A stretch of 64,000 bases of DNA, taken from IMG/VR virus record IMGVR_UViG_3300049137_000157, positions 1 through 64,000 of that record; one strand, 5' to 3'. This document shows, piece after piece, positions 4,359 to 51,409 of this stretch (positions within the stretch are counted from its first letter, which is position 1; the number at the start of each line of letters is the position of its first letter). Origin of the DNA: a virus. Both the position numbers and the translations under genes were made by a program. The notes beneath the pieces are model-generated. The model searched no databases. It was not told the origin of the DNA and saw only the letters and a list, made by a program, of their open reading frames with translations.

Positions 4359-4538
4359 GTGAACCAGTTCGGAATGCCGAGCGCCACGACCTACGACGTG
4401 ACGTCGGGAACCCAGCCGGGTACCGCCGCCCTGGAGGTGCGGACCCCGCATTGCCGTCACACCCTGCCGATGACGGTCGAGGGCCTGACCGACCTGATCG
4501 CAGCCGCCCAGGCCAAGCTGGCCGAGATCGCGAACTGA
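4359..4538 (+). CDS. small hypothetical protein (59 aa, not in ORF track)
   Basis: gaggagaagagg RBS, GTG...TGA, fills gap. Confidence 0.5.
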   Translation: MNQFGMPSATTYDVTSGTQPGTAALEVRTPHCRHTLPMTVEGLTDLIAAAQAKLAEIAN

Positions 4539-4547
4539 GGGGGAGTC

Positions 4548-4904
4548 GTGGATGAGGTGACGCACCGTCGGACCAAGGAGATCCGACTCCCCTTCTCGGG
4601 GGACGTGGTCGGCTGGATCGGGGAGTGGAGCGACGAAGGCTTCGAGGACACCTGGGACTCCTGGGGTCTGGACGGAGAGATCCTGGCGAACGGGACTCAT
4701 CGGCCTTGGGCGGAGTACACCATCCTGAAGAACGCCATGATGGTGACCCTTCAGGACGCGGCCGAGGTGGACGCAAAGGGGAACTTCGTGCAGCCCAAGG
4801 GAAGTCTTCTCGCATCGACGGCACGCATCCGGGAAATCGGAGAGGCTCTGAACCGGGTCCTCGTTCGACTCGCCCTCACCGTCTCCGTCGAGACCGACAA
4901 GTAG
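4548..4904 (+). CDS. hypothetical protein
   Basis: RBS gggag. Confidence 0.6.
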   Translation: MDEVTHRRTKEIRLPFSGDVVGWIGEWSDEGFEDTWDSWGLDGEILANGTHRPWAEYTILKNAMMVTLQDAAEVDAKGNFVQPKGSLLASTARIREIGEALNRVLVRLALTVSVETDK

Positions 4905-5028
4905 CTCCGGCCCTGCCGGAATCGGAAAGGAAGAGGAAATGAACGAGCTGTTCCGTGCCTTCGGTGCCCTCGCGCTGCTCTGGATCGACCGACTGTCCCG
5001 CCACTGACGTCACACGAGTTCATTTCGG

Positions 5029-5060
5029 GAACCCCGGCCACTTCAGGCCGGGGTTTCTTT
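5029..5060 (+). terminator. intrinsic terminator
   Basis: gaaccccggcc/ggccggggtttc stem then TTT. Confidence 0.7.
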
Positions 5061-5122
5061 GTTCGATTTACGTTTTCGCCTTAAAAGTAGAGGTGCGATC
5101 AAGGAGTTCTCCGTTCTATCCT

Positions 5123-5132
5123 GGCCTAGGCC
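5123..5132. promoter_or_regulatory. GGCCTAGGCC site
   Basis: Exact match directly after TATCCT; upstream of small ORF 5171..5314. Confidence 0.7.
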
Positions 5133-5170
5133 GTTAAAAGGCCCATCCCCCCCCGGAGAGGAAGAGGAAC

Positions 5171-5314
5171 ATGGCTCAGGACGAGAACAAGATCCCGACG
5201 CTCGGCGACCTGATGCGCCCGATCGACTGCTACGTCACCACGATCACGACCGAGGACGGCCGGACCACGGACGTCCAGCACTTCTGCGGCAACCCCAACT
5301 GCCCGGGTCTGTGA
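5171..5314 (+). CDS. small hypothetical protein (47 aa)
   Basis: RBS gagg; has its own promoter-like site and a following hairpin 5335-5366. Confidence 0.5.
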   Translation: MAQDENKIPTLGDLMRPIDCYVTTITTEDGRTTDVQHFCGNPNCPGL

Positions 5315-5377
5315 CCGATCTCGGCAGAAGTTCCAAGCCCCCGGCAGCCCCCTCGCCGGGGGCTTTCCGTGTATTAT

Positions 5378-5387
5378 GGCCTAGGTC
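5378..5387. promoter_or_regulatory. GGCCTAGGTC site (1 mismatch)
   Basis: Directly after TATTAT, before aggagg RBS. Confidence 0.65.
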
Positions 5388-5404
5388 ATAGGAGGAGAAG
5401 AGAC

Positions 5405-5800
5405 GTGAGCACTTCCGAAGAGAGAATCGAAGCCGCCCTCCTGCTCTTCCTGAAGGAGGAGCACGGGATCGAAGCCATCTCGGCCCGGGTGGGTGAGTCC
5501 GAAGTCGAGAGGGGCGCGGACTGTTCCTGCTGCGGCATCCACGAAGCGGACCTCATCCTCACCCCGATCCACTACCGGCTCGCAGACAAGTCGTGGGACG
5601 ACGACCTGAACCTCCACGGAACTGCCCCCGAGTTCCTGCCGAAGCTGGTGAAGTACCTCGACAGGATCACCGAGCAGGACGACGAGTTCTGTCCGAACTG
5701 CCGAGGCACCTACAACACCCGCATCGGCAACGACGAGAAGAACCACCACGCACCGTGCTGGTGCGGATCCGACGGCCACTCCACCTGCCAGCACTACTGA
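5405..5800 (+). CDS. hypothetical Cys-rich protein
   Basis: CSCC, CPNC, CWC motifs; RBS. Confidence 0.6.
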   Translation: MSTSEERIEAALLLFLKEEHGIEAISARVGESEVERGADCSCCGIHEADLILTPIHYRLADKSWDDDLNLHGTAPEFLPKLVKYLDRITEQDDEFCPNCRGTYNTRIGNDEKNHHAPCWCGSDGHSTCQHY

Positions 5801-5819
5801 CCCGAAGGGAAGGAACGTC

Positions 5820-6218
5820 ATGTCCATCCCAGTCGACAGAACCGGGAACAGTGACGCGTCGCTGCTCCACATCGCACTCATGGACGCCCTGACGTCCGGC
5901 CGAACCCTGACCGACAAGGAAGCGGCGGCCCTCCTGGACGGCTTCGCCCGTGCCTGGCACCGAAAGGGCTGGAAGGCCGGGTTCTCGCAGACCGACACCG
6001 ACGCCCTCCACGAGGCCCTGAACGAGGGGAAGGCCAGTGCAAACGAGAAGGGCGTGCACTACACGGTCGAAGAGCGACGGCCCGACGGTTACCCCGTCTG
6101 GGAGGTCACCCGCCGGACCCGATCCGACAACTGCCGCCTGATCACCGAGTACCTCCACCCGGTGGCCGCCAGCCAGGTCGCCGACGCCCTCAACAACTCC
6201 GCCCGACACGAGGACTGA
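5820..6218 (+). CDS. hypothetical protein
   Basis: RBS aagg; operonic. Confidence 0.65.
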   Translation: MSIPVDRTGNSDASLLHIALMDALTSGRTLTDKEAAALLDGFARAWHRKGWKAGFSQTDTDALHEALNEGKASANEKGVHYTVEERRPDGYPVWEVTRRTRSDNCRLITEYLHPVAASQVADALNNSARHED

Positions 6219-6220
6219 TC

Positions 6221-6532
6221 ATGATCTGGTACCAGGCAGCACAGTTCGACGGAGACTCTCGATGGTTTGTCGTCGATCTCGACAAGGGGTCCGATCGCGA
6301 CGCCGTCATCGACGCCGGACCTTGGGAAGACGAGGGCGAGGCCCGGACCTTCGCCGGTAACCTGAACAAGGCCATGGCTCTGTCCTGGAAGCGCGGTGAC
6401 GTCTACGCCGACCACTTCGACGGATGCACCGACTGCCCTGGCACCGAGAGCGGGGAGTGCGCCCGAGCCGTCGAGCTTCGTCTCGCCTGGCAGGAGGCCG
6501 AGAGGGCAACCCGCATCCCCGTCACCCGCTGA
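6221..6532 (+). CDS. hypothetical protein
   Basis: operonic; HxxxCxxC motif. Confidence 0.6.
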   Translation: MIWYQAAQFDGDSRWFVVDLDKGSDRDAVIDAGPWEDEGEARTFAGNLNKAMALSWKRGDVYADHFDGCTDCPGTESGECARAVELRLAWQEAERATRIPVTR

Positions 6533-6549
6533 ACAACAAGGAGATCAAC

Positions 6550-6897
6550 ATGATCGAGTCCGAGGTCCGCGAAGGTCTCATCACCAAGGCATGGCACCAC
6601 GACCTGTCCGATGACAGTGACACCATCACTGTGTTCCAGATGGAAGATGTCCCGGGAGCGTTCCACGGACCGGCCGACTGGCTGCCCCTGCTTGAGGAAG
6701 CCATCAGCATCAAGACGCGAGTCCGGGTGATGGCCAGCATCCCCGCTCCGGAGCCGTGCGGAGACCCGCTGTGCGGCGACGGCTGCTGTGAGGACCCGGA
6801 CTGCACCAACGTGCCCCTGGAGGAGCGACAGCGCCCCTTCGTCGTCCGGGCCGACACCATCGAGTGGCTCGATTCCGAAGCGGCGATGACCGGCTGA
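6550..6897 (+). CDS. hypothetical protein
   Basis: RBS aaggag. Confidence 0.6.
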   Translation: MIESEVREGLITKAWHHDLSDDSDTITVFQMEDVPGAFHGPADWLPLLEEAISIKTRVRVMASIPAPEPCGDPLCGDGCCEDPDCTNVPLEERQRPFVVRADTIEWLDSEAAMTG

Positions 6898-6954
6898 TGG
6901 TGGCCCCGAAGATCGGTGAGATCTACTTGATCTGAAACGGAAAGGAGAAAAGAC

Positions 6955-7269
6955 GTGACCGACACGTACCAGGAGGGCGAAGACCCTGTGAACGACGAGA
7001 CGATGACCGTGACGGTCCGAGACACCAGCGTCGAGGCACCTTGGGGGTACGGGCTCTTCCGGCCGGTGACTCGGCCGGTGACGATCTCGGCCTTCTGCCC
7101 CACCTGCGGTGAGCGCCGGGGGACCCCCCGGAAGCAACGCAACGCCGAGGACGGGGTTTCCTGGTGGACGGACGTGTGGGACAACCCCTGCGGCCACAAC
7201 GACATGTACACCTCCGTGATCCTGGAGGCCCGTGGACGAGGCACCCTCGGCCTTCCGCAGAGCCACTGA
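6955..7269 (+). CDS. hypothetical Zn-ribbon protein
   Basis: CPTCGERRG...NPCGH; RBS aaaggag. Confidence 0.65.
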   Translation: MTDTYQEGEDPVNDETMTVTVRDTSVEAPWGYGLFRPVTRPVTISAFCPTCGERRGTPRKQRNAEDGVSWWTDVWDNPCGHNDMYTSVILEARGRGTLGLPQSH

Positions 7270-7301
7270 ACATCGCACCACCCCGGAGAGGAGAAGAGAG
7301 C

Positions 7302-7715
7302 ATGACCAACAAGGCCCCCAAGAGGTATGTGGAGCGCTTCCTGGAGGTGGCCGAGGACACCGATTGGTCCCGGTACTCCCGGCTCCAGGATCTGACCCAG
7401 GCCGACCTGCGAGCGGCGGCCGAGGCGCTGTGGCAGCACTCCACCCGCACCCGACGCTACGTCCAGACCCTGCCGAAGAACATCACGTCCGACGACGTGG
7501 AGCGGGTCCTGATGACGTACGTCGGTACCTGGGAGGACGAGAACCACGTTGTCTCGGAGATCTACCGGTCCTTCATGGACCGGGTCGACGAGATGGGCCT
7601 GAGCCAAGGAACCCGGGACCGCATCGTCGAGGACCTGTACCAGCAGTGGGCCGGTGAGGTTCCTCGGACCGTCGTCAACAACGTCGACGGGATCCGGGGC
7701 TTCTACGGACTCTGA
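7302..7715 (+). CDS. hypothetical protein
   Basis: RBS gaggag. Confidence 0.65.
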   Translation: MTNKAPKRYVERFLEVAEDTDWSRYSRLQDLTQADLRAAAEALWQHSTRTRRYVQTLPKNITSDDVERVLMTYVGTWEDENHVVSEIYRSFMDRVDEMGLSQGTRDRIVEDLYQQWAGEVPRTVVNNVDGIRGFYGL

Positions 7716-7804
7716 GGACTCTGAGGACTTCGTTTCGGGGGGCGGCTGACGGCCGCCCCCCTTCTCAGCCATAATCAAGATTCGGCCGGAGGGGGTAATC
7801 TTTC

Positions 7805-8065
7805 ATGCCGTCGTACCTCTTTGAGTTTGAACTTTTCAACTTCAACACCGACCGAGAGCCGGACCTGAAGCTGGCCGAAGCTGCGAACAAGGCATGCGGT
7901 GCCGAGTTCTGGGAGTGCAACGGGCACGCTTACGTGTGGCTCCAGGTGGAGTCGTCTCACGTGGGATACGGGCTGCGTACAGCAAGGCAGCAGCTCTCGG
8001 GCCTGCTGCCCAACCGGCTGATGCAGATCCGAGACGTCCAGGAACTGAAAGAAGAGAGGGCCTGA
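7805..8065 (+). CDS. hypothetical protein
   Basis: RBS gagggg. Confidence 0.55.
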   Translation: MPSYLFEFELFNFNTDREPDLKLAEAANKACGAEFWECNGHAYVWLQVESSHVGYGLRTARQQLSGLLPNRLMQIRDVQELKEERA

Positions 8066-8316
8066 TGGTTTCACCCGAGAAGACCACCGGAGAGACCGAG
8101 GGCCTGACGGAAAGCCGCTACTCCGGACACACCCAGGCGGTTCTCCAGGGGCTGCGCATCGCTCGCGCGGCTCTGCTCGACCCGCGCCAGTTCGAACACG
8201 TCGATGACCTCCCCGGCAGAGAAGCCTCCGTGCAGGTCATCGAGCGGCTTGTGTCGCTTGCTGAACACGGGAAGTTCTGGAACGAGGTGAAAGGGCTGAA
8301 GCCCTACAGCCGCTGA
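8065..8316 (+). CDS. hypothetical protein
   Basis: TGATG coupling to previous gene. Confidence 0.55.
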   Translation: MVSPEKTTGETEGLTESRYSGHTQAVLQGLRIARAALLDPRQFEHVDDLPGREASVQVIERLVSLAEHGKFWNEVKGLKPYSR

Positions 8317-8480
8317 CCCGGCACACGCTTCGCAGTTGAGCGAGGCCCTCCGGGAACCGGAACGTTGAGGACCGCGTCCTCACTTCACACAGGCCACTCA
8401 GCATTTATTCGCAACCCTGTTGACTCCACAGAGGGTTGTGCGATTACCTGTCCAAGCACCGCATGGAATGGAGAAGAAAA

Positions 8481-9587
8481 GTGGAGCGAGAAGACCGACA
8501 GACACCCATCGAGAAGATGCTCGGCAAGAGCTTTATGATGGTCTCGGACCCGCGTCTGGCGAAGTACCCGCTGCCCGAGATCCCCGAGAACTGGGACCGA
8601 AGCAAGCCGTACCCGCACCCGACGCAGACCATCACCCCGGACATGGCGATGGACATCCTGCGCTACCGCGCCATCGAGCTGGACCGGATCCCGAAGGAGA
8701 TCCGGCACTCCGAGATGGTGGCCAACCGGCGGATCATGCCCGGTGCACTGACCGGTACCCGCCGCCGCAAGGGCCTCATCCAGATCCTCCGGGACGGCGA
8801 GTGGAACGAGGGCACCGCCAGTCCGATCCAGTTCAGCGCGGACGGCTTTCTGCTGGACGGCCAGCACCGCATCGCGGCCTGCGCCCTGTCCAAGCACCCC
8901 GAAATCTGCCCGACCGGCGTCGCCATCAAGGTCCCCGTCACCGACTGCGTCCCGTGGGACACGTTCGCCGTCACCGACGTCGGCCGGGGTCGTAACGCCG
9001 GAAACCTCCTCCGCATGAAGTACTCGGCCTACATCGGCGGTGCCGCCAAGCTGATCCTCCCCGTCCTGCACGGCGACGAGAGGCTGCGCTGGTCGTACAC
9101 GGAGGCGACCACCGCCGAGTGCGTCACCCTGGGGCAGCAGTGGCCGCTCTTCGACTCCCGGTGGGTCACCGAGATCATGAAGGCCACGACCCACCTCCAC
9201 ATCCCCACCACGCCACTGCTGGCGACCGTGATCATGGCCCTGGCGGCCGGTGGCGACAAGGTCAGCGACGACGTCCAGCAGTTCCTCAACGGCCTGAGCA
9301 TCGACTTCGAGGAGGGGTACCACTGGCCGTACGGTGACGGCAAGGACCCCCGGTACATGCTCAAGACGATGTACCTCCGCAAGAAGGCTGGCAGCAAGAA
9401 CTTGACCGACGCCGATCGGCGGCTCGCCACGGCACACATCCGGCGCGCCCTGGAGATCTGGCTGGAGCGCAAGTCCGACCGGCCGATCAACCTCCAGAAG
9501 CTGCCCAACCCGGGCGACAAGGAGCTTCTGCCCGAGGTTTGGCGGGCTGACGACGTCCGTACCTACCACCTGGAGGTCACGGCCTGA
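8481..9587 (+). CDS. ParB/Srx-like N-terminal domain protein (DGQHR motif)
   Basis: PIQFSADGFLLDGQHRIAA core motif; start uncertain (8436-8517). Confidence 0.65.
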   Translation: MEREDRQTPIEKMLGKSFMMVSDPRLAKYPLPEIPENWDRSKPYPHPTQTITPDMAMDILRYRAIELDRIPKEIRHSEMVANRRIMPGALTGTRRRKGLIQILRDGEWNEGTASPIQFSADGFLLDGQHRIAACALSKHPEICPTGVAIKVPVTDCVPWDTFAVTDVGRGRNAGNLLRMKYSAYIGGAAKLILPVLHGDERLRWSYTEATTAECVTLGQQWPLFDSRWVTEIMKATTHLHIPTTPLLATVIMALAAGGDKVSDDVQQFLNGLSIDFEEGYHWPYGDGKDPRYMLKTMYLRKKAGSKNLTDADRRLATAHIRRALEIWLERKSDRPINLQKLPNPGDKELLPEVWRADDVRTYHLEVTA

Positions 9588-10015
9588 TGGGGAACACCAA
9601 CCGCCGCATCAAGGAAGTCTGGAGAAGGCCGGAGTTCCGGGATCGCCTCGGTGAGCTGGAGACCCGTCAGGACTTCGAGAAGCGGACCGGGATGTCGCCG
9701 ACGGCGCTCTCGACCCGGCTCTCGTCGTACGCCAACTGGGCTCCGCAGCCGGTCGTCATACGAGGTAAGACCAAGTACTTCGTTCCCGAAGAGTTGGACC
9801 AGTTCATCGCGAAGATCGAGGACAGCGGCCCTCGGTCGATGGCAGAGCTGGCTCGGGCGAATCTCGCCCGAGCGAAGATGCAGCGCGAGGAGGCGCAGGA
9901 GCGGGCGGAGACGCACCGTGAGCACCTCCAGAAGGCCGAGCGTGACATCAAGCAGGCCGAGCGCGACGAGCGGGAAGCCCAGCTCATCCTCAAGGGGCTG
10001 GGCGAGGGCGAGTAG
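9587..10015 (+). CDS. putative DNA-binding HTH plus coiled-coil protein
   Basis: Coupled to ParB-like gene; N-terminal excisionase-like pattern, C-terminal heptads. Confidence 0.5.
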   Translation: MGNTNRRIKEVWRRPEFRDRLGELETRQDFEKRTGMSPTALSTRLSSYANWAPQPVVIRGKTKYFVPEELDQFIAKIEDSGPRSMAELARANLARAKMQREEAQERAETHREHLQKAERDIKQAERDEREAQLILKGLGEGE

Positions 10016-10050
10016 GTTCTCTGGTTGACCAACTGAAGTAGAACACCTGA

Positions 10051-10085
10051 AGCAGCCCTGGCTCTATCCGCCGGGGCTGCTTTTT
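10051..10085 (+). terminator. intrinsic terminator
   Basis: gcagccctgg/ccggggctgc then TTTTT. Confidence 0.7.
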
Positions 10086-10153
10086 GGTACCACCAGAAAT
10101 TCAAAAATGGTCCCTTCGGGGGCCTTTTTTGCTACCCTACGAAAGGACAGGAA

Positions 10154-10363
10154 ATGTTGGGCTTCGAAGTGAGATTCGAAGACCACGGACGTTTCGGTGT
10201 GGCGGCAGTCGAGCCTCGTACCGGCGTCCGGTGCACGGGTGACTCGATAGAAGAAGTGCGCCGCGAGATGCACAAAGCGCTCCGTGATTACGTTGAGATT
10301 CACGGCGCTCCTTCGCCGGAACCTGACGCCCCCGTGCAGACGATCGAGATCATCGTGATCTGA
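10154..10363 (+). CDS. HicB-like protein (N-terminal domain only)
   Basis: GVRCTGDSIEEVRREMHKALRDYVE matches HicB xGxTxEEA...xAL pattern. Confidence 0.55.
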   Translation: MLGFEVRFEDHGRFGVAAVEPRTGVRCTGDSIEEVRREMHKALRDYVEIHGAPSPEPDAPVQTIEIIVI

Positions 10364-10734
10364 ACGGAAAGGGTGAGGAACGTGTCGCGCTCGACCTACT
10401 ACACACTCGTCCGTCACAACATGTGGACGGTGCGGGAATTGGGGCAGTTTCGTAACGCCCTTCAGCCGTATCCCATCACGGTCCGCGTGGCTCTCCTGGT
10501 GGTGCACGCCGGGGGGACGGTGTTCCGGAGCGAGGAGCAGGCGTGGGACGCCGCCGAGCAGTGGACACAGAGCGGGAGCACAGGTATCCCGGATGGCATA
10601 TTCATAAACATGCCAAACCTTAACCTCCCCCTGTTCTGCCCAGTGTTTTCAGGGGATCTCCTAGCGGCATAAGCTGGGTTCACCCTTCTACGGAGGGGAC
10701 CCTGCTTGATCCCGCCCCTGCAAGGAGATCCGAT

Positions 10735-11250
10735 ATGGCCCAGATCAAGGGCATTTACCTGCGAGAACCGCCCAAGAGTCCCGACATGTACACGTCGAAG
10801 GCTGCGGCGTTGTTGGCCGAACCGCACAAGACGGTGGCCGACCGAGCGTTTCCGAAAGATAAGATCGAAAGCGTCAAGAACGCCGCGTCGAGGGTGAACT
10901 CCGACCGGCGAGGAGATTGGCCTTTCAACCAGTTCTTCGGCATCTGGGAGTATGCCGACGACGCGGTTCTGAAGATCCCTGCTTCCGGCGAAGAGGACGA
11001 GCGGACGTCCTTTCTGGGATTCGCCGTGAACGGGGAGGTCATCGGCGAGGACGGAAGTTCGGTCGGCATCCTGAGCGAACTCCGCCAGGAGCCCGGCGTC
11101 GACGTCGGAGGCTGGGTGCTGCTGATCGGCGTCCATCCCAACGTCCCCAAGGGCTGGGAGCGCATCGTGTACGGGACGCGCAGGCGACGCCGAACCGACG
11201 CTCTCGAAACGGAGAATCCGGGACACGCTGAAGAGCACTCGGAGGAGTGA
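10735..11250 (+). CDS. hypothetical protein
   Basis: RBS aaggag; terminator 11253-11283 follows. Confidence 0.65.
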   Translation: MAQIKGIYLREPPKSPDMYTSKAAALLAEPHKTVADRAFPKDKIESVKNAASRVNSDRRGDWPFNQFFGIWEYADDAVLKIPASGEEDERTSFLGFAVNGEVIGEDGSSVGILSELRQEPGVDVGGWVLLIGVHPNVPKGWERIVYGTRRRRRTDALETENPGHAEEHSEE

Positions 11251-29239: not shown

Positions 29240-29716
29240 TCAGATCTTCAGCAAATCCCGGGCTCGGAACATTTCCGCCGGGCTCACGTACACGAGCACA
29301 CGGGTGTTCAGATTCTTGAGCGACTGCCCCATCAAGGGGAGAACGTCCTCGATCTGGAGACCCCCGAGCCCGCAGCCGAGCTTGGGGATGGCCACCGACG
29401 GGATGTCGTTCGTCTCCAGGTACCCGGCAAGGAGCTGGATTCCGTTCTCGACCCAGGCCAGACGCGACTTGTCGCTCCAGTGACCCTTGGTGGCAACGTT
29501 CACGATGTTCCGTCCGTCGCCGTTGTCGATCATCAACTGGCCCGGCAGCAGGTTCCCGTTGCGGCACACGACCCGGTACCTGGCGAACATGCCCGGGTAC
29601 TGCAACTTGAACTGGAGCGCGAGACCCGCCCCCATGACGCCGACGCAGTTCACCGCGTTGACCAGCGTGTGCGCGCCGGACGCGAAGAGGTTTCCGGTGA
29701 CCACCTCAACGGACAC
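29240..29716 (-). CDS. macrodomain ADP-ribosylhydrolase (DarG/Poa1p-like)
   Basis: GNLF...TLVNAVNCVGVMGAGLALQFK..YP.MF..Y...IVNVATK.HW...S...VAIPKLGCGLGGL. Confidence 0.88.
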   Translation of the reverse strand: MSVEVVTGNLFASGAHTLVNAVNCVGVMGAGLALQFKLQYPGMFARYRVVCRNGNLLPGQLMIDNGDGRNIVNVATKGHWSDKSRLAWVENGIQLLAGYLETNDIPSVAIPKLGCGLGGLQIEDVLPLMGQSLKNLNTRVLVYVSPAEMFRARDLLKI

Positions 29717-33224: not shown

Positions 33225-33271
33225 AATAGGAAGGGCCCCGTCTGTGGACGAGGCCCTTCCTGTTCGGATCT

Positions 33272-33475
33272 TCAGACAGTGCTGACGTCAGCCGCCTGGG
33301 GACCCTTCGAACCCTGCTCCACCTGGAAGTAGACGCGCTGCCCCTCTTCGAGACTGCGGTACCCACCACCCTGGATGGCGGAGTAGTGGACGAAGACGTC
33401 CTTCCCGCCCCCGTCCGGGGTGATGAAGCCGAAACCCTTCTCGGCGTTGAACCACTTCACGCTGCCCTGCGGCAT
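33272..33475 (-). CDS. csp: cold-shock protein (CSD)
   Basis: [15 protein letters not shown] (RNP1) and DVFVHYSAI (RNP2), 67 aa. Confidence 0.97.
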
Positions 33476-33674
33476 GTCAGTCCTCACACATTGCTCGTTG
33501 GAAACCCCGGGGAAGAGTGACGCGAAACCCACGAACACCAAACTCGGAGTGCTCTGAAATCGTATCGACGATCCCCGACATGACCAGCGTAAAGATCAGA
33601 GGGAATCACGCCACCCACTGTTTCCTCACAAGCGAATGTCCCGACTGGTGAAGATTCTCCCAAAAACGTGCGGA

Positions 33675-33720
33675 GAAAAACGACTGACCGCCCGGAAGGA
33701 AGAACCCTCCGAACGGTCAG
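33675..33720 (-). terminator. terminator after Ro60 gene
   Basis: ctgaccg...cggtcag stem followed by TTTTT on minus strand. Confidence 0.6.
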
Positions 33721-33749
33721 CAGTCATCCGGCTTGACGGCCTGCTCGGG

Positions 33750-35399
33750 TCAGGACATCCACGGCCAGTGGGCGTTGCGCCCCGACTCCAGCAGCGGAAT
33801 CATCCGGAACGCGGCGTCGGTGAGACCGCCGAACGTGTGCCGGTTGCCCTTGCCCGACGGACCGTGACCTGCCTGGTAGCCCGCGAGGTTCCAGGTGTAC
33901 ACCGGAATGTTCTTCGGGACCTGCTCGGTCGGGTCACCGCCGTGGGCGCTGTCGGCCTGCTCGTCCGTGATGATGACGACCCGGTCGTGTCGGGCGAACT
34001 TCTCCTGGACCGCAAGTGCGGTCGCGGTGCCGCCGCCGAGGAACCAGCCGCCGTCCTTCCACCGGCCCACCGCTCGCAGCAGGGACTCGCCCCGCTTGAG
34101 CGGGAAGTCCTTGGTGTTCGCCCCGGGTAGGTCGTTCCAGTACCGCTGGGTCGAGGAGAACGACACGACGTCCGCCGAGGCGCAGCGCTGTCCCAGGGCG
34201 ATACCGAACAGGGCGGCGGCGTCCCACCGCATGAGGCTGCCGTCCTTCGAGAAGGCTCCCTTCATGGACGTCGAGGTGTCGACCAGGATCAGCGTCCGCC
34301 CCTTCAGCTCGGGCACGTTGGCCAGCGAGTGACCGAGCGCCTTCTCCAGCGGGTAGCCCCAGCGCAGCGACGGGGCCGCCTGGTATGCCGAGTAGAACCG
34401 CATCGGGAACTGCTTGGACCGGGCAACTTCGGCCGGATCGGCGAGCTTCTTCGAGACCAGTTCCGCCGACTCGTCCGGCACACCCGACTCGTCGAAGTTC
34501 CGCAGGTTCCGCAGCAGCGCCATGTAGCCCATCGACGGGATCATCGACTGCCACAGGTCGCTCTTGTTGACCTTCGAACCGAGGGCGGACAGGACGTCCT
34601 CCCAGGTGAGTCCGGAAGCCTTCAGAGCGGCGGGGTCGAGGAGGCGGGCGAGGGTCTCGTGCTTGTCCGCCACGGTCCCGTCGATCACCTGCTGCGTCTC
34701 GCTGCGCCACCGGCGCTCACTGCGGAGCATGGCCAGCGAAGCCGGAAGCGGAGCCTCGTTGCCCTTGCTCTTGTGGTCGAGGATGTAGCCGAACAGTTCT
34801 CGCTGTCGCTGGTCGAGCGGGCTCGGGTGGACGATCCGCAGGGCGTCGGCGAACTTGACGTTGTTCTTGGCCGAGTCGTACTTGAGCCAGTTTCGCTCCG
34901 TGTACATTCGGCCGATCGCCGCCTCCAGGCCCTTGTACACCGCCGTGTAGCGCCGGGGCTTCGCCTTGCCTGCGATCGAGAACCAGTAGGCGAGGAACTC
35001 ACCCACCTCGTCCGGCCGCTGGAGCGAGCCGTCGATCATCTCGGCGATGCCGTCGTAGCGGTGGGCGTCGGCCAGCACCTTGGCCACCTCAGCCGCGCCG
35101 ACGACGGCCGCCGTGCGCATGAAGCCCTCGGAGCGCAGCCAGGGCAGAAAGCCCTGAACCCAGGCCGGGTCGTCGAGTGCGACCTTCTGGATCAGTTCGG
35201 CGTAGCGGGTGTCACGCCTGTCGGCCTTCTCGTAGAAGGTGTTCTCGCCGACCATGTTGGCGAGGGCGAGCAGGTACAGCTCGCTCTTGGCGTCGCGGAG
35301 GTATCCCGTTCCGCCCTGGTGGTTGATGGTGGTGGTCCCGGTCGAGGTGACCGGCGAGGTGACGAGCGGCCGGGTCGACCGGGTGTTCAGCTTGGCCAT
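33750..35399 (-). CDS. rsr: Ro60/Rsr orthologue (TROVE + vWA domains)
   Basis: N-term NHQGGTGY...ELYLL...TFYE; MALLRNLRN; QFPMRFYSAY; vWA MIDAS ILVDTSTSM, VIITDEQ, YTWNLAGY. Confidence 0.92.
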   Translation of the reverse strand: MAKLNTRSTRPLVTSPVTSTGTTTINHQGGTGYLRDAKSELYLLALANMVGENTFYEKADRRDTRYAELIQKVALDDPAWVQGFLPWLRSEGFMRTAAVVGAAEVAKVLADAHRYDGIAEMIDGSLQRPDEVGEFLAYWFSIAGKAKPRRYTAVYKGLEAAIGRMYTERNWLKYDSAKNNVKFADALRIVHPSPLDQRQRELFGYILDHKSKGNEAPLPASLAMLRSERRWRSETQQVIDGTVADKHETLARLLDPAALKASGLTWEDVLSALGSKVNKSDLWQSMIPSMGYMALLRNLRNFDESGVPDESAELVSKKLADPAEVARSKQFPMRFYSAYQAAPSLRWGYPLEKALGHSLANVPELKGRTLILVDTSTSMKGAFSKDGSLMRWDAAALFGIALGQRCASADVVSFSSTQRYWNDLPGANTKDFPLKRGESLLRAVGRWKDGGWFLGGGTATALAVQEKFARHDRVVIITDEQADSAHGGDPTEQVPKNIPVYTWNLAGYQAGHGPSGKGNRHTFGGLTDAAFRMIPLLESGRNAHWPWMS

Positions 35400-35405
35400 G
35401 ATCTT

Positions 35406-35873
35406 CTAGTCCTTTCCGGTGGTCGCGTTCGGTGAGACCGTCGGGGCCTCCTTGAGTGCCTTCAGTTCGGTGAGCAGGGTGATGACGTGGGACATCAGTC
35501 CGGCATGCTCGGTCGCCCCCACTGCGAGAGCCTGGTCGCGGTGCTCGATGACCCCTTGCCGGACGCGATCGACATCTGCCGTAGTGGAGTCGATGCCAGT
35601 CGAAATTGCTGAAGACTTCGACGTTCCCACGTTGGGTGCTTCCCGGTAGGGCCGGAAAGCCGCAAGGGTCTCGATCCCCTCGACAATGACCCGGAGGTCT
35701 CCGTACAGATCCGAGAAGACGGCCTCGGCGTGCGGGTTTTGCAGGTAGTCGGGGTGCGGGTTCTGGGCGAGCGACCGCAATGCGCGCAGTTCCTCGTGGT
35801 CGACGGCGAGGAGGATGGTCTGCTCGTTCAGCGACTTGCCGGTGCTCTCGTCAGGGTTGGTGGCGTTCCTCAT
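35406..35873 (-). CDS. hypothetical protein between RNA ligase and Ro60
   Basis: RBS aggag; 6 bp from Ro60 start, 19 bp from ligase stop. Confidence 0.65.
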   Translation of the reverse strand: MRNATNPDESTGKSLNEQTILLAVDHEELRALRSLAQNPHPDYLQNPHAEAVFSDLYGDLRVIVEGIETLAAFRPYREAPNVGTSKSSAISTGIDSTTADVDRVRQGVIEHRDQALAVGATEHAGLMSHVITLLTELKALKEAPTVSPNATTGKD

Positions 35874-35892
35874 GGACAGCGTCTCCTGTTGA

Positions 35893-36648
35893 TCACTTGC
35901 TGCGCAGAGTGCGGGCGTAGTCCTCGAAGCGGGCCTTGGCAATGATCTTGCGGTCCTCGGTCCGCAGGACGATCCCTTCGGCCTGACCCTTCGCTCCGTC
36001 GTCGAGTGCGACACGGGTGGAGGGGAGGGCGTCGAGAAGCCACTGCTGCATGCCCGCGATGCCCTTGGGGAGAGCCTGGGCCGGGACGCGACCGAGTCGC
36101 GGGGTCAGGGGGATGTTGACGGCGAGGGCGTAGTTCAGCATCTCGGTCTCGGTGTGGAAGTCCTGTCCGCCGTTGTCCCGCCAGGAGGCGATGCGCTCCC
36201 GGTTCCAGGTGAGGACGTCCGGGTTGAAGCGCGCGATGTCGAAGAGGCGGTAGCCGGTGAGGCCGGTGGTGGAGTACTGCTTGGCTGCTGCGCCGATGCC
36301 CGAGCCGTAGACCTCCAGGAAGAGGGTGTAGATCTGACCCGTGTCGGTGGGCTTGGCGAGCTGCTCCGCAAGGGGCCGCAGGGCGCTGACGATGCCGAGC
36401 GTCGGGTTGGCCACCCGGTCACCCTTGGCGTACAGGAGTTCCTTGCGCGAACCGATGAGGTAGTCGCCGTCGGGGAAGAGGACGATGCGCCCGTTGGTGC
36501 CGTCGACCTTCTCGGTGAGGACGACATCGCCCTCGAACTCCGTGGCCTCGTCGGTGAGGCGGCCCTTGTTGCCCAGTGCGTGGTACGTGAAGATGCTCGG
36601 GTACTGCGTGGCCGAGTCGATCTCCGGAAGCCTGTTCGGATCGAACAT
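35893..36648 (-). CDS. ATP-dependent RNA ligase (Rnl2-like nucleotidyltransferase)
   Basis: Motif I TEKVDGTNGR, FLEVYG, YRLFDI, AEGIVLR, IAKAR. Confidence 0.8.
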   Translation of the reverse strand: MFDPNRLPEIDSATQYPSIFTYHALGNKGRLTDEATEFEGDVVLTEKVDGTNGRIVLFPDGDYLIGSRKELLYAKGDRVANPTLGIVSALRPLAEQLAKPTDTGQIYTLFLEVYGSGIGAAAKQYSTTGLTGYRLFDIARFNPDVLTWNRERIASWRDNGGQDFHTETEMLNYALAVNIPLTPRLGRVPAQALPKGIAGMQQWLLDALPSTRVALDDGAKGQAEGIVLRTEDRKIIAKARFEDYARTLRSK

Positions 36649-36674
36649 GTCCTTCTCCTTTTCCATCAGAACGC

Positions 36675-36710
36675 AGAACGCCCCCTCTCCCGAATTGGAG
36701 AGGGGGCGCT
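36675..36710 (-). terminator. hairpin between ncRNA array and ligase
   Basis: 12-bp stem cgccccctctcc/ggagagggggcg. Confidence 0.55.
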
Positions 36711-36718
36711 TCCTGTGG

Positions 36719-36879
36719 TGCGAGGACGAAGTGACCGGCTGAAAAAGTCGGCCCCGGCGTGTGGAGTCTGATGCTCTACCAATTGAGCTACGGGCAGCTT
36801 GGCTGCTCGACGGGACTTGAACCCGCAACCGCCAGAGTGAAGTATCCGGAACCTGCGCTCCGGTCACCACGTCCTCGCA
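36719..36879 (-). ncRNA. yrlA: YrlA-like Y RNA with circularly permuted tRNA domain
   Basis: Ends pair (ugcgaggac/guccucgca; gugaccgg/ccggucac). Order inside: ucugg, T arm GCGGG-UUCAAGU-CCCGU, acceptor stem closed by CAA loop, UA, D arm GCUC-AAUUGGUA-GAGC, ucaga; upstream of Ro60. Confidence 0.85.
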
Positions 36880-36886
36880 TCACAGC

Positions 36887-37041
36887 TTCACAGATCCAGA
36901 GGAGCCACCGGCTGAAAGATGAGCCCCGGCGTTTGCCCCGTGCCAGATTTGGGCGTTGACGGATTCGAACCGTTCCATTTCTTGTTTCAGGAAGAAGTAA
37001 CCGTTGCTGCGGCACTCCGGTAACTCTTCTGAACCTGTGAA
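36887..37041 (-). ncRNA. second Y-RNA-like unit with T-arm only
   Basis: Terminal stem uucacag/cugugaa; shared ccggagug...guuacuuc and ggc...cuuucagccgg motifs; T arm ACGG-UUCGAAU-CCGU at 36959-36973. Confidence 0.7.
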
Positions 37042-37046
37042 GTCGA

Positions 37047-37123
37047 GCGCCCCCCGGCTGAAAAGTCGGCCTCGGTCTAATTTCACCGAAGAAGTATCCG
37101 AAGCCTGCGCTCCGGGGGTGCAC
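37047..37123 (-). ncRNA. third, minimal Y-RNA-like unit
   Basis: cccccgg/ccggggg stem; ccggagcgcagg..cggauacuuc and gccgacuuuucagccgg motifs nearly identical to unit 1; short hairpin insert. Confidence 0.65.
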
Positions 37124-37129
37124 TAAGAA

Positions 37130-37158
37130 CACTAGGCCATTCGACAGGCCACCACAAC
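37130..37158 (-). promoter_or_regulatory. putative promoter of Y RNA array
   Basis: Minus strand TTGTGG-N17-TAGTGT about 6 nt before unit 3; overlaps half-site GGCCTAG. Confidence 0.5.
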
Positions 37159-38815: not shown

Positions 38816-39193
38816 TCATCTCCCCTTTCCCGTCTTTTCCTCGTCCTGCCGCCGGGCTTCCGCTTCCCAGTCGATGTGTTCTTGCATCGTCCGACGAATG
38901 TGACTGAGGTTGTCCCTCTTGACGCCAACCCGAACGTTGACCGTCAACGCCCGCAGGCGCTCCAGCTCGCCGGGGTACTCCTCGTAGTCCGGCTTGCGGT
39001 AGTCGGCGATGTCTTCCAGGTGATTCAGCAGGTCCTCCCATCCTTGGCCGTACCACTGCGGGCCGACGAGAGCGGTGCCCCCGACCGGAATCGACCGGCA
39101 CCGCGCGATCAGCGCCTGGATCACCTCCAAGCGATACGCATCCACCTCCTCATCCGTGACGCCCTTGACGAGAAGAGCTTTGCGGGCGTTCAC
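38816..39193 (-). CDS. hypothetical protein
   Basis: GTGA overlap. Confidence 0.6.
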   Translation of the reverse strand: MNARKALLVKGVTDEEVDAYRLEVIQALIARCRSIPVGGTALVGPQWYGQGWEDLLNHLEDIADYRKPDYEEYPGELERLRALTVNVRVGVKRDNLSHIRRTMQEHIDWEAEARRQDEEKTGKGR

Positions 39194-39486
39194 CGGGTGT
39201 CTTCGGCGGGATGTGCATCGATCTCCACGGACACCCCGACCGCACGGGCGTACCCCATGAGCGAAGACATCCGGGGGTCTGCGCCGAGGCGTTCGAAGTC
39301 TCGCACCTCCGAAAGGGGCATCTCCATGGCGACAGCCACCTGCTCGACACTGAGGCCGAGCTGGGTGCGGCGTGCCACCAAGGCGGCGATCAGCGACGTG
39401 ATCGTGGTGACGTCCTGGAGCGCCGCCAGCACCTGCGGATCGTCGGGGTCAAGGCCGAGGGACTTGCCGATCGATTTGGTGCTCAC
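39190..39486 (-). CDS. XRE-family HTH protein (HigA-like)
   Basis: LVARRTQLGLSVEQVAVAMEM..S.V..FERLG.DPRMSSL..YARAVG. Confidence 0.8.
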   Translation of the reverse strand: MSTKSIGKSLGLDPDDPQVLAALQDVTTITSLIAALVARRTQLGLSVEQVAVAMEMPLSEVRDFERLGADPRMSSLMGYARAVGVSVEIDAHPAEDTR

Positions 39487-39908
39487 GTCGTTTCCTTCGT
39501 TCGGGGTGCGTCCACCGCGACAGGCACCGGCTTGGGATTGCCCAGGCCGATCGGCCGCTCGGGGCCGCAGGCGTTGAACAGCACCTGACCCGCGAGGGTT
39601 GCCGGATAGGCGGCACCCTGCGGGCGCATGCCTCGGATGCGTGCCGCGTACAAGGGGGCCGTGACGTATGCGAGACCCGCGCCGGACGCGTCCGCGAACG
39701 CCTTCTCCAGCACCGACAGGGTTTCGGGCGTGATCTCCTCGGCGTCGGCCGCGCCCCAGGCGAAGATGTCGCTGACGTTGACCGACAGGCTGATCTTGTT
39801 CTCCTCGGTGACACTCCAGAGGAGATCCTCGCGAACGTCTGCGAGGTAGAAGATCCGGAGGACTCGGGTCAAGAACGGGACGTCGTCTTGTGTGCGCGTA
39901 TCGGTCAT
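39483..39908 (-). CDS. hypothetical protein
   Basis: operonic. Confidence 0.6.
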   Translation of the reverse strand: MTDTRTQDDVPFLTRVLRIFYLADVREDLLWSVTEENKISLSVNVSDIFAWGAADAEEITPETLSVLEKAFADASGAGLAYVTAPLYAARIRGMRPQGAAYPATLAGQVLFNACGPERPIGLGNPKPVPVAVDAPRTKETT

Positions 39909-40267
39909 CGGGCACCACACCATTCTGGGAAGTTTCGCTTGATCTGCTCGTACTCCGCCCGGATCACGGACAGGACATCCCGTCCTTCCGGGAATTCAAA
40001 CCACTCGCCGCGAATGCGGTACCGGCCGAAGCTCTCGTGTAGCGCCCACTCCAGGTCGCGCCCGCCCGGGAAGGTCTCCAGGAGTTCGAGCGCGAAGGGT
40101 GAACCGGTCTGGAAGGAGGACAGCCGTTCCTCGGGAAATCCGTAACCGACCTTCACGGCACGGAACTCCGGCGAGCCGATCACGTAGACGCACGTCCTCT
40201 TCCGCCACTGTCGGTAGACCTGTCGGCGGCGTTTCTCCTCGTCGGCGACGACCTCTTCGGTCTTCAC
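39905..40267 (-). CDS. GIY-YIG nuclease, T5orf172/MUG113-like
   Basis: CVYVIG....VKVGY...ERL..FQTGSP..LE......E..LH..F..YRIRGEWF. Confidence 0.85.
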   Translation of the reverse strand: MKTEEVVADEEKRRRQVYRQWRKRTCVYVIGSPEFRAVKVGYGFPEERLSSFQTGSPFALELLETFPGGRDLEWALHESFGRYRIRGEWFEFPEGRDVLSVIRAEYEQIKRNFPEWCGAR

Positions 40268-40659
40268 CGGCCAGCCTCCGTACAGTCGCAGTCCTCGACG
40301 GTCGTCGCATCGCAGACGTGACTCCCGAGGGGACGGCCCGCGTCCGCGTGCAGCCGGTACCGGTTCACCATGTCGTTGATCTCGTGCCAGAACTTGCTGC
40401 TCTCGCCGTGACGGTCGTGACGGTCCCGCTGATCCTGGAGCCACTTGTCGACGGCGTCCCCGTGGACCGGCTGGAACGTGAGGCGCACACCGTATCGCTT
40501 CTTCCAGTTGTAGCGGACGAACAGGATCGCCCACCCCGGCATGGACGCGATGCGTTTCACCGGCTTCTTGAGGGGGGCCGCGAGCCCCACCTGCATCGTC
40601 TGGGGATTGACGCTTCCCCAGAGGGTGAGCTTGACGCCGGGCCAAACCGGGATCCTCAC
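40264..40659 (-). CDS. hypothetical protein
   Basis: GTGA overlaps. Confidence 0.55.
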   Translation of the reverse strand: MRIPVWPGVKLTLWGSVNPQTMQVGLAAPLKKPVKRIASMPGWAILFVRYNWKKRYGVRLTFQPVHGDAVDKWLQDQRDRHDRHGESSKFWHEINDMVNRYRLHADAGRPLGSHVCDATTVEDCDCTEAGR

Positions 40660-50980: not shown

Positions 50981-51409
50981 ATGGACAGCACTCGGGCCGC
51001 GACGGCCCCACGGCGACCCCGGGATCAGGTTGACGAGTTCGCGGCACTGGTTCTGGCCGAACTGCGAGATCGGGGTCTGAGGCGTGGAGCTGTCGCCCCA
51101 GGGCCTCGCGAGATGTCCCGGGACATAGGCGCTCCGTACGAGTTGATGGTCCGCGTCTACCAGTGGCTCCTGGAGAAGCGTCACCTGGTCCGAAGCGCCG
51201 GTACGGCCTTCCGGATCATCACTCTGGAGCGGCAAGAAACGCGATGCATGGCGCGCAGTTCCGTGCCCCATCAGGGTCGGGTGACGGCCGTCTTCTGTGA
51301 AGTAACCAAACCTCACGGGGCTCACCGGGGCGAAGGTCCTGGCGGATCCGTCGTGGAGTGGACCGACGGCCAAGTTCCCAGACAAGTCCGGCGTGCCCCG
51401 GTAGGGTGA
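50981..51409 (+). CDS. GntR-like wHTH regulator (putative)
   Basis: LAELRDRGLRRGAVAPGPREMSRDIGAP...V.RVYQWL. Confidence 0.55.
   Translation: MDSTRAATAPRRPRDQVDEFAALVLAELRDRGLRRGAVAPGPREMSRDIGAPYELMVRVYQWLLEKRHLVRSAGTAFRIITLERQETRCMARSSVPHQGRVTAVFCEVTKPHGAHRGEGPGGSVVEWTDGQVPRQVRRAPVG

Follow-up and report, generated by a model that had tools for sequence, protein, structure and literature searches.

Introduction

A survey by Chen et al. 2014 found 254 bacteria and 22 phages in which YrlA-like Y RNAs lie no more than 4 kb from the gene for Ro60 (Rsr) and share its strand (PMC4201824). The same work described a 5' motif, GNCGAAN0-1G, that is thought to contact Ro60, together with a YUAY element, a YrlB RNA with a possible T-arm, and the arrangement in M. 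smegmatis, where YrlA and YrlB lie upstream of rsr and are both processed from one precursor (PMC4201824). Here we analyse a locus of this kind at positions 33272-37158 of a 64,000-nucleotide stretch of phage DNA, hereafter the window, which comprises bases 1-64000 of the 199,468-bp IMG/VR record IMGVR_UViG_3300049137_000157. A Ro60 gene and three Y RNA units are accompanied here by a gene for an ATP-dependent RNA ligase, which, from a comparison of related loci, we regard as an accessory to the Ro60/Y RNA core.

In Salmonella, the chromosomal rsr-yrlBA-rtcBA locus (PMC7790460) likewise unites Ro60, Y RNAs and an RNA ligase in a setting linked to tRNA damage. The Salmonella ligase is RtcB, a GTP-dependent enzyme that joins 3'-phosphate or cyclic-phosphate ends to 5'-OH ends and is accompanied by the RtcA cyclase and the RtcR regulator, whereas the window locus is phage-borne and has an ATP-dependent ligase, of the type that joins 3'-OH to 5'-phosphate ends. 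According to a passage in PMC7824862 that cites Burroughs & Aravind 2016, TROVE proteins in jumbo phages act as RNA-repair platforms with RtcB and ATP-grasp ligases. The T4 Pnk + Rnl1 and Pnkp cassettes resemble the window locus in having a phage ATP-dependent ligase with a plausible role in tRNA repair; they differ from it in their end-processing partners, as a kinase or phosphatase was not found in the window phage.

Results

A Ro60/Y RNA locus in a complete actinophage genome

The record that contains the window has direct terminal repeats, is rated 100% complete and has a G+C content of 64%. Its relatives are the Streptomyces cluster BM phages (Frankenweenie, Kela, JustBecause and Satis), with which it shares a match at the DNA level only in the cold-shock gene csp. 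The element is a large lytic-type actinophage from soil, of the Streptomyces type, and a complete genome with terminal repeats bears out the view, taken in a preliminary description of the sequence, that the locus is carried by a mobile element. Each of the parts named in that description was found at its coordinates, on the minus strand. In the order of transcription, the features are as follows (ORF, open reading frame; E, expectation value).

37129-37157, minus strand: promoter-like site read from the sequence, with a -35 element TTGTGG (37152-37157), a 17-nt spacer and a -10 element TAGTGT (37129-37134)
37045-37124, minus strand: Y RNA unit 1, minimal, identified by its fold; it comprises a short hairpin, a closing stem and the 5' motif CCGGAGCG...GGAUACUUC
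36886-37042, minus strand: Y RNA unit 2, which is YrlB-like; it has the 5' motif, an isolated T-arm (GGUUCGAAUCC) and ~27 bp of closing stem
36713-36885, minus strand: Y RNA unit 3, YrlA-type; besides its closing stem and 5' motif it has a tRNA-like domain at ~36767-36836
36678-36709, minus strand: GC-rich hairpin closing the array, identified by its fold, ~30 nt before the ligase start codon
35896-36648, minus strand: ATP-dependent RNA ligase of 251 residues, nucleotidyltransferase domain only, identified by PF09414, its motifs and a structural model
35409-35873, minus strand: ORF155, an orphan helical protein with two modules (residues 1-78 and 91-153) and a disordered linker
33753-35399, minus strand: Ro60/Rsr ortholog of 549 residues, TROVE and vWA domains, identified by Pfam, PHROG and PDB alignment
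33683-33721, minus strand: intrinsic terminator after Ro60, a 17-bp stem followed by a U-tract, called by a terminator scan
33275-33475, minus strand: CspA-type cold-shock protein of 67 residues (CSD, E 2e-31; phrog_729)

The Ro60 protein matches the TROVE family PF05731 with E 3e-16 and 60 bits, against a cut-off of 23, and phrog_850 across residues 18-549 (E 3e-48). Residues 20-541 align with the solved TROVE proteins 9kop and 9l5y (E 4e-28), and in the vWA part (residues 264-541, compared with 9kop) the metal-ion-dependent adhesion site motif DxSxS is present as DTSTS where the solved chain has DVSGS. These two PDB entries, recently solved 'TROVE domain-containing proteins' of ~500 residues, are the nearest solved relatives of the window protein. 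The 'Ro-like RNA binding protein' of the BM phages (Frankenweenie, Kela, JustBecause and Satis) is 38-46% identical to it.

Each of the three RNA units upstream folds on its own, closed by its own long stem, and all three begin with CCGGAG(C/U)GC, a few bases and GG(A/U)UACUUC; the shared 5' motif can be written CCGG(A/U)GCG, 6-10 nt, GG(A/U)UACUUC. Unit 3, on the strand of Ro60 and 1.3 kb upstream of it, has a tRNA-like domain made up of a V region, a T arm, a closed acceptor-like stem-loop and a D arm, in permuted order; the unit matches the Rfam YrlA model RF02553 with 41.5 bits (E 8.6e-7), under the gathering score of 69. At gathering thresholds Rfam gave no match in the window, the Y RNAs surfacing at E-value thresholds only, and ARAGORN found no tRNA there. 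A profile of the 5' motif (nhmmer) run on the 199-kb genome returned exactly three matches, all within the array (E 1e-6 to 3e-5; unit 1, 3e-5; unit 2, 1.2e-6). In most of the IMG/VR (actinophage) Ro60 loci the same profile also has a match upstream of Ro60 and in its orientation; a plain motif scan finds one to four units per locus. A fourth GGUUACUUC site in the window, at 51307 on the minus strand and preceded by CCGGUGAGC, was rejected; it is probably a chance occurrence, since it lies within overlapping ORFs and lacks a Y RNA-like fold.

The folds are backed by comparison with other phages. In unit 3, nine of the 31 consensus pairs show compensatory changes, as do 15 of the 40 in unit 2 across four phages; the stems of unit 1 are conserved in its orthologues from Frankenweenie, JustBecause and Satis, with no covariation. 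YrlA matches occur at the syntenic position in these same three phages. The Ro60 of the locus and its Y RNAs are genuine, as the preliminary description had held.

Comparison with described bacterial and mycobacteriophage Rsr loci shows extensive likeness: several Y RNAs that closely precede the gene of a TROVE/vWA protein in the same orientation (PMC4201824), one Y RNA that combines T and D arms with a closed acceptor-like stem, another with an isolated T-arm, a 5' motif resembling the Ro contact and followed by a YUAY-like element, and a polycistronic precursor, which we infer for the window. The window units carry GGAGCGCAGG or GGAGUGCC, and their relatives GGUGCGAAGG or GGUCCG, followed by (A/U)UAC, a combination that resembles the published GNCGAAN0-1G and YUAY elements without matching them exactly. 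The window phage departs from these loci in having three units rather than two, very long closing stems and a YrlA score under the gathering threshold, and in the hairpin between array and genes and the ligase and orphan ORF that precede Ro60. From the agreement with Chen et al. 2014 (PMC4201824) we take the array to be a clear yet divergent member of the described Ro60/Yrl kind; binding of these RNAs by Ro60 would fit the adjacency of the genes and the conserved 5' motif.

Transcription signals and relatives of the locus

The start predicted from the promoter-like site at 37129-37157 coincides with the base of the stem that closes unit 1, and the corresponding slot in the BM phages holds TTGCGA, 17-18 nt and TAATGT. 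The sequence TTGTGG-17 nt-TAGTGT fits a host-type promoter; a consensus promoter scan of the window did not call the site. At the other end of the array, the GC-rich hairpin at 36678-36709 has a clear U-tract at the equivalent place in Satis, Frankenweenie and JustBecause. In the window its tail is weaker, just UUCUGCGUUCUG, and the terminator scan did not call it; it is likely a leaky terminator or attenuator. The hairpin and the ligase ATG are only ~30 nt apart, which leaves no room for a further promoter, so that ligase, ORF155 and Ro60 would most simply be expressed by read-through. The preliminary description had the whole locus as one minus-strand block; the common strand is confirmed, while a single plain operon is contradicted by the GC hairpin after the array and the strong terminator between Ro60 and csp. 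The G+C content at third codon positions (GC3) is 0.81-0.92 across the csp, Ro60, ORF155 and ligase genes and 0.55-0.66 in the array, which has no codon-position GC bias.

The succession of promoter-like site, short unit, long-stemmed T-arm unit, tRNA-like unit, GC hairpin and ribosome-binding site of the next gene recurs in Satis, Frankenweenie and JustBecause, and Kela has the same three 5'-motif matches. In all, this layout of promoter, three-unit array, hairpin and genes is shared by four or five phages of the BM type. JustBecause (MH744418) and Kela (MT310898) have the window order of array, hairpin, PF09414 ligase and Ro60, with a ligase 50% and a Ro60 45% identical to those of the window phage; they differ from it in lacking ORF155, in having csp ~40 kb away and in carrying 13-14 tRNAs, against a single tRNA gene in the entire 199-kb window phage. 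Their GenBank annotations read 'RNA ligase' and 'Ro-like RNA binding protein', a pair that is not discussed in the Satis/JustBecause genome announcement.

The annotation of the arrays themselves varies. Frankenweenie gene 148, annotated 'tRNA-Pro(tgg)' (positions 4745-4835 of the extracted locus, L001), overlaps Y RNA unit 3, and JustBecause gene 137, annotated 'tRNA-Cys' (positions 3583-3653 of L002), overlaps unit 2. The Rfam tRNA model matches neither place, and both annotations are therefore probably parts of Y RNAs misread as tRNAs. The arrays of Satis and Kela are unannotated.

A nucleotidyltransferase-only RNA ligase

The ligase matches PF09414 (E 5.7e-14; phrog_548) and has a GC3 of 0.91. 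Its motifs I, III, IIIa, IV and V read TEKVDG, FLEVYG, YRLFD, EGIVLR and IAKARF and are conserved in 28 homologs, with K47 in TEKVDG as the predicted active-site lysine. A longer ORF of 325 residues was rejected, as its upstream extension enters the Y RNA and is without GC3 bias, and the ATG at 36648 was taken as the start. A Foldseek search with the AlphaFold model (predicted local distance difference test score, 89) returned T4 Rnl2 at the top (E 2e-9), followed by NgrRnl, Rnl3 and REL1. Values for Rnl2, NgrRnl and Rnl3 ranged from E 2e-9 to 2e-6 with template-modelling (TM) scores of ~0.5-0.57, and the TM score normalised to full Rnl2 was only 0.45. By sequence, neither the single query nor the 28-sequence profile found a relative in the PDB.

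The window ligase resembles T4 Rnl2, Naegleria NgrRnl (Rnl5) and archaeal Rnl3 in its nucleotidyltransferase fold and in carrying motifs I, III, IIIa, IV and V; nothing in it corresponds to the C-terminal helical domain of Rnl2, to the OB domain at the N terminus of Rnl5 or to the further domains of Rnl3 (dimerisation and C-terminal). It ends at residue 251, directly past motif V, without the helical domain that occupies residues ~244-329 of T4 Rnl2, and motif I, at residue 47, is preceded by only a short helix and strands, with no OB-like domain of the kind that marks Rnl5 ligases (NgrRnl/DraRnl). The designation Rnl2-type given in the preliminary description is thus sound for the catalytic domain and not for a full Rnl2, the C-terminal domain of which is missing. 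Its further statement, that the partner of Ro60 is an ATP-dependent KxDG ligase and not RtcB, agrees with the KxDG motif and with the absence of RtcB from the 199-kb phage.

Homologs 50-63% identical to the window ligase are common in Streptomyces, Kitasatospora, Nocardiopsis, Nocardia and Micromonosporaceae, under the name 'RNA ligase family proteins'. In a quick IQ-TREE search the ligase tree mostly tracked host taxonomy, with the phage copies nested in Streptomycetaceae, which suggests that the phage ligase was captured from actinobacterial hosts.

Recurrence of the ligase beside Ro60

The juxtaposition of this ligase family with Ro60 is found outside the window phage. In JustBecause and Kela the ligase lies directly upstream of Ro60, and on one IMG/VR contig it lies ~3 kb away. 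In six Dactylosporangium chromosomes, Ro60 and the same ligase family stand head to head amid housekeeping genes, with a YrlA-like match in the spacer of one of them (L105), and a provirus encodes a larger set of enzymes behind its Ro60:

L069, L074, L085, L097, L104 and L105, ~6150-8730: Dactylosporangium Ro60-ligase pairs, with neighbours dehydroquinase, solute-binding protein and TrkA
IMGVR_UViG_637000198_000003 (L126), 4496-11112, all on one strand: provirus with Y-like units, Ro60, Metallophos, an OB+PF09414 ligase and Pnkp

The sole TROVE gene of Dactylosporangium genome G001 is the one beside the ligase, and a sister genome (L106) has the ligase and no TROVE gene. The ligase tree requires at least two independent origins of the juxtaposition, and a TROVE gene is present in 3 of 17 ligase-bearing viral records, compared with 77 of 50,697 phage records overall.

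The provirus has, within 6 kb, three Y-like units, Ro60, small ORFs, a Metallophos phosphoesterase, a ligase and a Pnkp with kinase and HAD domains. Two of the Y-like units have GGUCCG-type 5' motifs and T/D arms, and Rfam YrlA gave no match in this locus at E<=0.05. Its ligase has a PHA02142 OB domain and its Pnkp is T4-Pnk-like. A complete healing-and-sealing cassette behind Ro60 and Y RNAs, as predicted here from sequence, supports a link with repair, and of all the parallels we regard this one as the most telling. Together, JustBecause and Kela, the six Dactylosporangium chromosomes, where the pairing arose independently, and the provirus show that the proposed connection between ligase and Ro60 recurs.

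Other phage Ro60 loci are differently composed. In BRock (L138) and Atuin (L139), Ro60 lies mid-array among 15-25 tRNA genes, and at several IMG/VR Ro60 loci tRNA genes flank it on both sides. Inspection of the Ro60 loci of BRock, Atuin, VanLee, CcrColossus and RsoM2USA found no ligase.

ORF155, the cold-shock gene and neighbouring genes

ORF155 has an AGGAG ribosome-binding site and a GC3 of 0.81, and its model is all-helical with a disordered linker (predicted TM score, 0.36). Each half matches separate metagenome proteins of 62-105 residues (E 3.5e-8 to 6e-4), and ORF155 looks like a fusion of two such small-protein families, as judged from these matches. Conserved motifs are AQNPHP in the N half and LMSHVI...AELK in the C half; elsewhere the modules are seen solely as separate small metagenome proteins. 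Pfam, PHROGs and phage tblastn gave nothing for ORF155, and IMG/VR gave no relative of the whole or of either half. The small-protein relatives likewise have no phage match and no names, a metagenome scan yielded a single, uninformative 1.2-kb contig, and an Atlas structure search returned non-specific helical look-alikes only. A role for ORF155 as the missing end-healing enzyme was ruled out by its all-helical structure with disordered linker, in which there is no catalytic fold. The preliminary description had counted both ORF155 and the cold-shock protein as parts of the module. The former has no relative in any phage record. The gene of the latter has a leader (~200 nt) and a terminator (~33225-33256) to itself, and in the BM phages csp lies at ~126-129 kb and Ro60 at ~85 kb. 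Since csp stands behind the intrinsic terminator at 33683-33721 and is ~40 kb from Ro60, and so not syntenic, in the BM phages, its product is a neighbour of the module and not a member.

Further genes lie on the minus strand on either side. The gene at 29240-29716, downstream by 4 kb, encodes a stand-alone protein of the Macro domain family (PF01661, E 5.8e-13). A connection with the chemistry of ADP-ribose or of RNA 2'-phosphates is conceivable for this protein, and we make no link between it and the module. Upstream, the stretch 39190-40645 encodes a protein whose C-terminal part weakly matches HTH_3 (E 3e-4, under the cut-off) and, adjoining it, a MUG113 domain protein (PF13455, E 2.7e-9).

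Discussion

We propose, with confidence that leans a little to the positive side of even, that the locus encodes a Ro60/Y RNA particle, of a sort common among large actinophages, to which a ligase has been added as an accessory for sealing, and that tRNA or rRNA is its target in infected cells. A host-type promoter would drive a precursor with three Y RNAs, one minimal, one YrlB-like with a T-arm and one a tRNA-like YrlA, and the hairpin after the array would pass only part of the transcripts into ligase, ORF155 and Ro60, with the proposed consequence that the RNAs are abundant and the proteins scarcer. Ro60 would bind the Y RNAs, and the minimal ligase, captured from actinobacterial hosts, would have been inserted between array and Ro60 in this phage lineage. 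The Ro60/Y RNA particle may then recognise or shield damaged or misfolded tRNA or rRNA, while the ligase would reseal breaks bearing 3'-OH and 5'-phosphate ends, the ends that ATP-dependent RNA ligases require. What the sequences show directly is the identity of the parts, their arrangement, their conservation and the covariation; joint transcription, binding and a cooperation of ligase and Ro60 are inferred, and the tethering of Ro60 to the ligase by Y RNAs, as put forward in the preliminary description, is a further conjecture. The frequent location of phage Ro60 genes in or beside tRNA arrays counts in favour of such a link with repair.

Several observations weigh against this proposal. T4 Rnl2 without its C-terminal domain, which the window ligase also lacks, is defective in sealing. 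The AAA_33 kinase (PF13671), 2H esterase (PF13563) and Metallophos (PF00149) families are absent from the whole phage genome, as is RtcB (PF01139), with RtcA (PF01137) not searched for. As neither a healing enzyme nor RtcB was found, the phage alone cannot repair the 2',3'-cyclic-phosphate and 5'-OH ends left by classical anticodon nucleases. The genomic association is also far from general. With the window ligase as tblastn query, none of 20 IMG/VR Ro60 loci had a match within 5 kb, and 19 of the 20 had no ligase. Ro60 was nearby in only 1 of 30 viral ligase loci and in 6 of 80 bacterial ones, the bacterial neighbourhoods being taken from a scan of genome contigs. A PF09414 ligase was found nowhere in Satis or Frankenweenie. 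TROVE genes were tallied in 13 of 401 genomes, a count that includes the unpublished genome G050, which was left out of further comparison, and 11 other TROVE-bearing Actinomycetota genomes had no adjacent PF09414 ligase. Across 107 loci the ligase family has no conserved neighbour, and a tree that follows host taxonomy is what would be expected of a free-standing gene. The co-conservation of ligase and Ro60 expected from the preliminary description is thus largely refuted, in that most loci of either gene are without the partner.

These same counts are the strength of an alternative in which Ro60 and the Y RNAs alone form the functional unit, and the ligase and ORF155 are unrelated to it, have their own substrates and merely occupy a permissive slot behind the hairpin. 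Satis and Frankenweenie, with the same array and Ro60 and no ligase, the solitary nature of the ligase gene, the restriction of ORF155 to the window phage and the highly variable gene content around phage Ro60 are all consistent with such an arrangement. What speaks against it is that the same ligase family came to lie beside Ro60 at least twice independently, that in Dactylosporangium genomes of 11-13 Mb the single TROVE gene directly adjoins the ligase, that the provirus has a different PF09414 ligase with healing enzymes behind Ro60, and that co-occurrence at the level of genomes is far over the phage base rate. We consider a purely coincidental ligase unlikely, though well worth keeping in mind, and our reading of the comparisons is that ligase and Ro60 form a loose, recurrent functional association and not an obligate system.

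A role in RNA decay is further from what we find. Here the Y RNAs would tether Ro60 to host PNPase or another exonuclease, as in the Deinococcus RYPER, and structured host RNAs would be degraded or processed in the course of infection, with the ligase irrelevant. This is the sole biochemically established role of bacterial Ro60 and Y RNA in the passages of PMC4201824 and PMC7790460 that cite it, and most phage Ro60 loci are without a repair enzyme; yet the window gives no sign of a nuclease partner, and the recurrent ligase and Pnkp neighbours suit repair better, which makes a decay machine distinctly improbable. We give the same low standing to a decoy function, in which YrlA, without an anticodon loop or a free CCA end, would compete, uncleavable, for host tRNA nucleases or tRNA-binding factors, and Ro60 would mainly stabilise it. 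A YrlA acting as a competitive inhibitor of an anticodon nuclease has already been proposed (PMC7790460), the tRNA-like domain is conserved with covariation, and the phage has only one tRNA gene. Against this, units 1 and 2 are equally conserved though without a full tRNA body, and the idea has no direct evidence behind it; it would be compatible with a repair particle. Least probable to our minds is that the RNA-binding module which the ligase lacks is supplied in trans, either by the Ro60/Y RNA particle or by ORF155, to give a repair particle for tRNAs or rRNAs with 3'-OH/5'-phosphate breaks (for example from metal-dependent toxin cuts), or else that the ligase reseals or circularises Y RNAs after RNase P-type cleavage of the acceptor-like stem, a cleavage reportedly seen in M. 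smegmatis YrlA.

Returning to the favoured reading of a Ro60/Y RNA particle with an accessory ligase, its novelty is limited. The preliminary description's term, an undescribed system, is overstated, as 22 phages with YrlA adjoining Ro60 were on record by 2014 (PMC4201824) and GenBank already annotates the ligase/Ro pair; the cassette is a modest variation on a known RNA-repair theme and not a new system. New in this analysis are the long-stemmed array of three units conserved in BM-type phages, the pairing with a nucleotidyltransferase-only ligase, the orphan ORF155 and the parallels that Dactylosporangium and the provirus offer independently. The three-unit array also corrects existing annotation, in which some of the Y RNAs are filed as tRNAs or are unannotated, and JustBecause and Kela, which can be grown on laboratory strains of Streptomyces, offer tractable test systems.

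The only genetic clue so far to the role of Ro60 and Y RNAs in bacteria and phages has been their frequent adjacency to RtcB. In the window phage and a few independent loci the partner is instead an ATP-dependent ligase, to which the provirus adds a full kinase/phosphatase healing set. Taken together, these loci strengthen the view that Ro60 and Y RNA work with RNA end-joining irrespective of the chemistry of the ligase.

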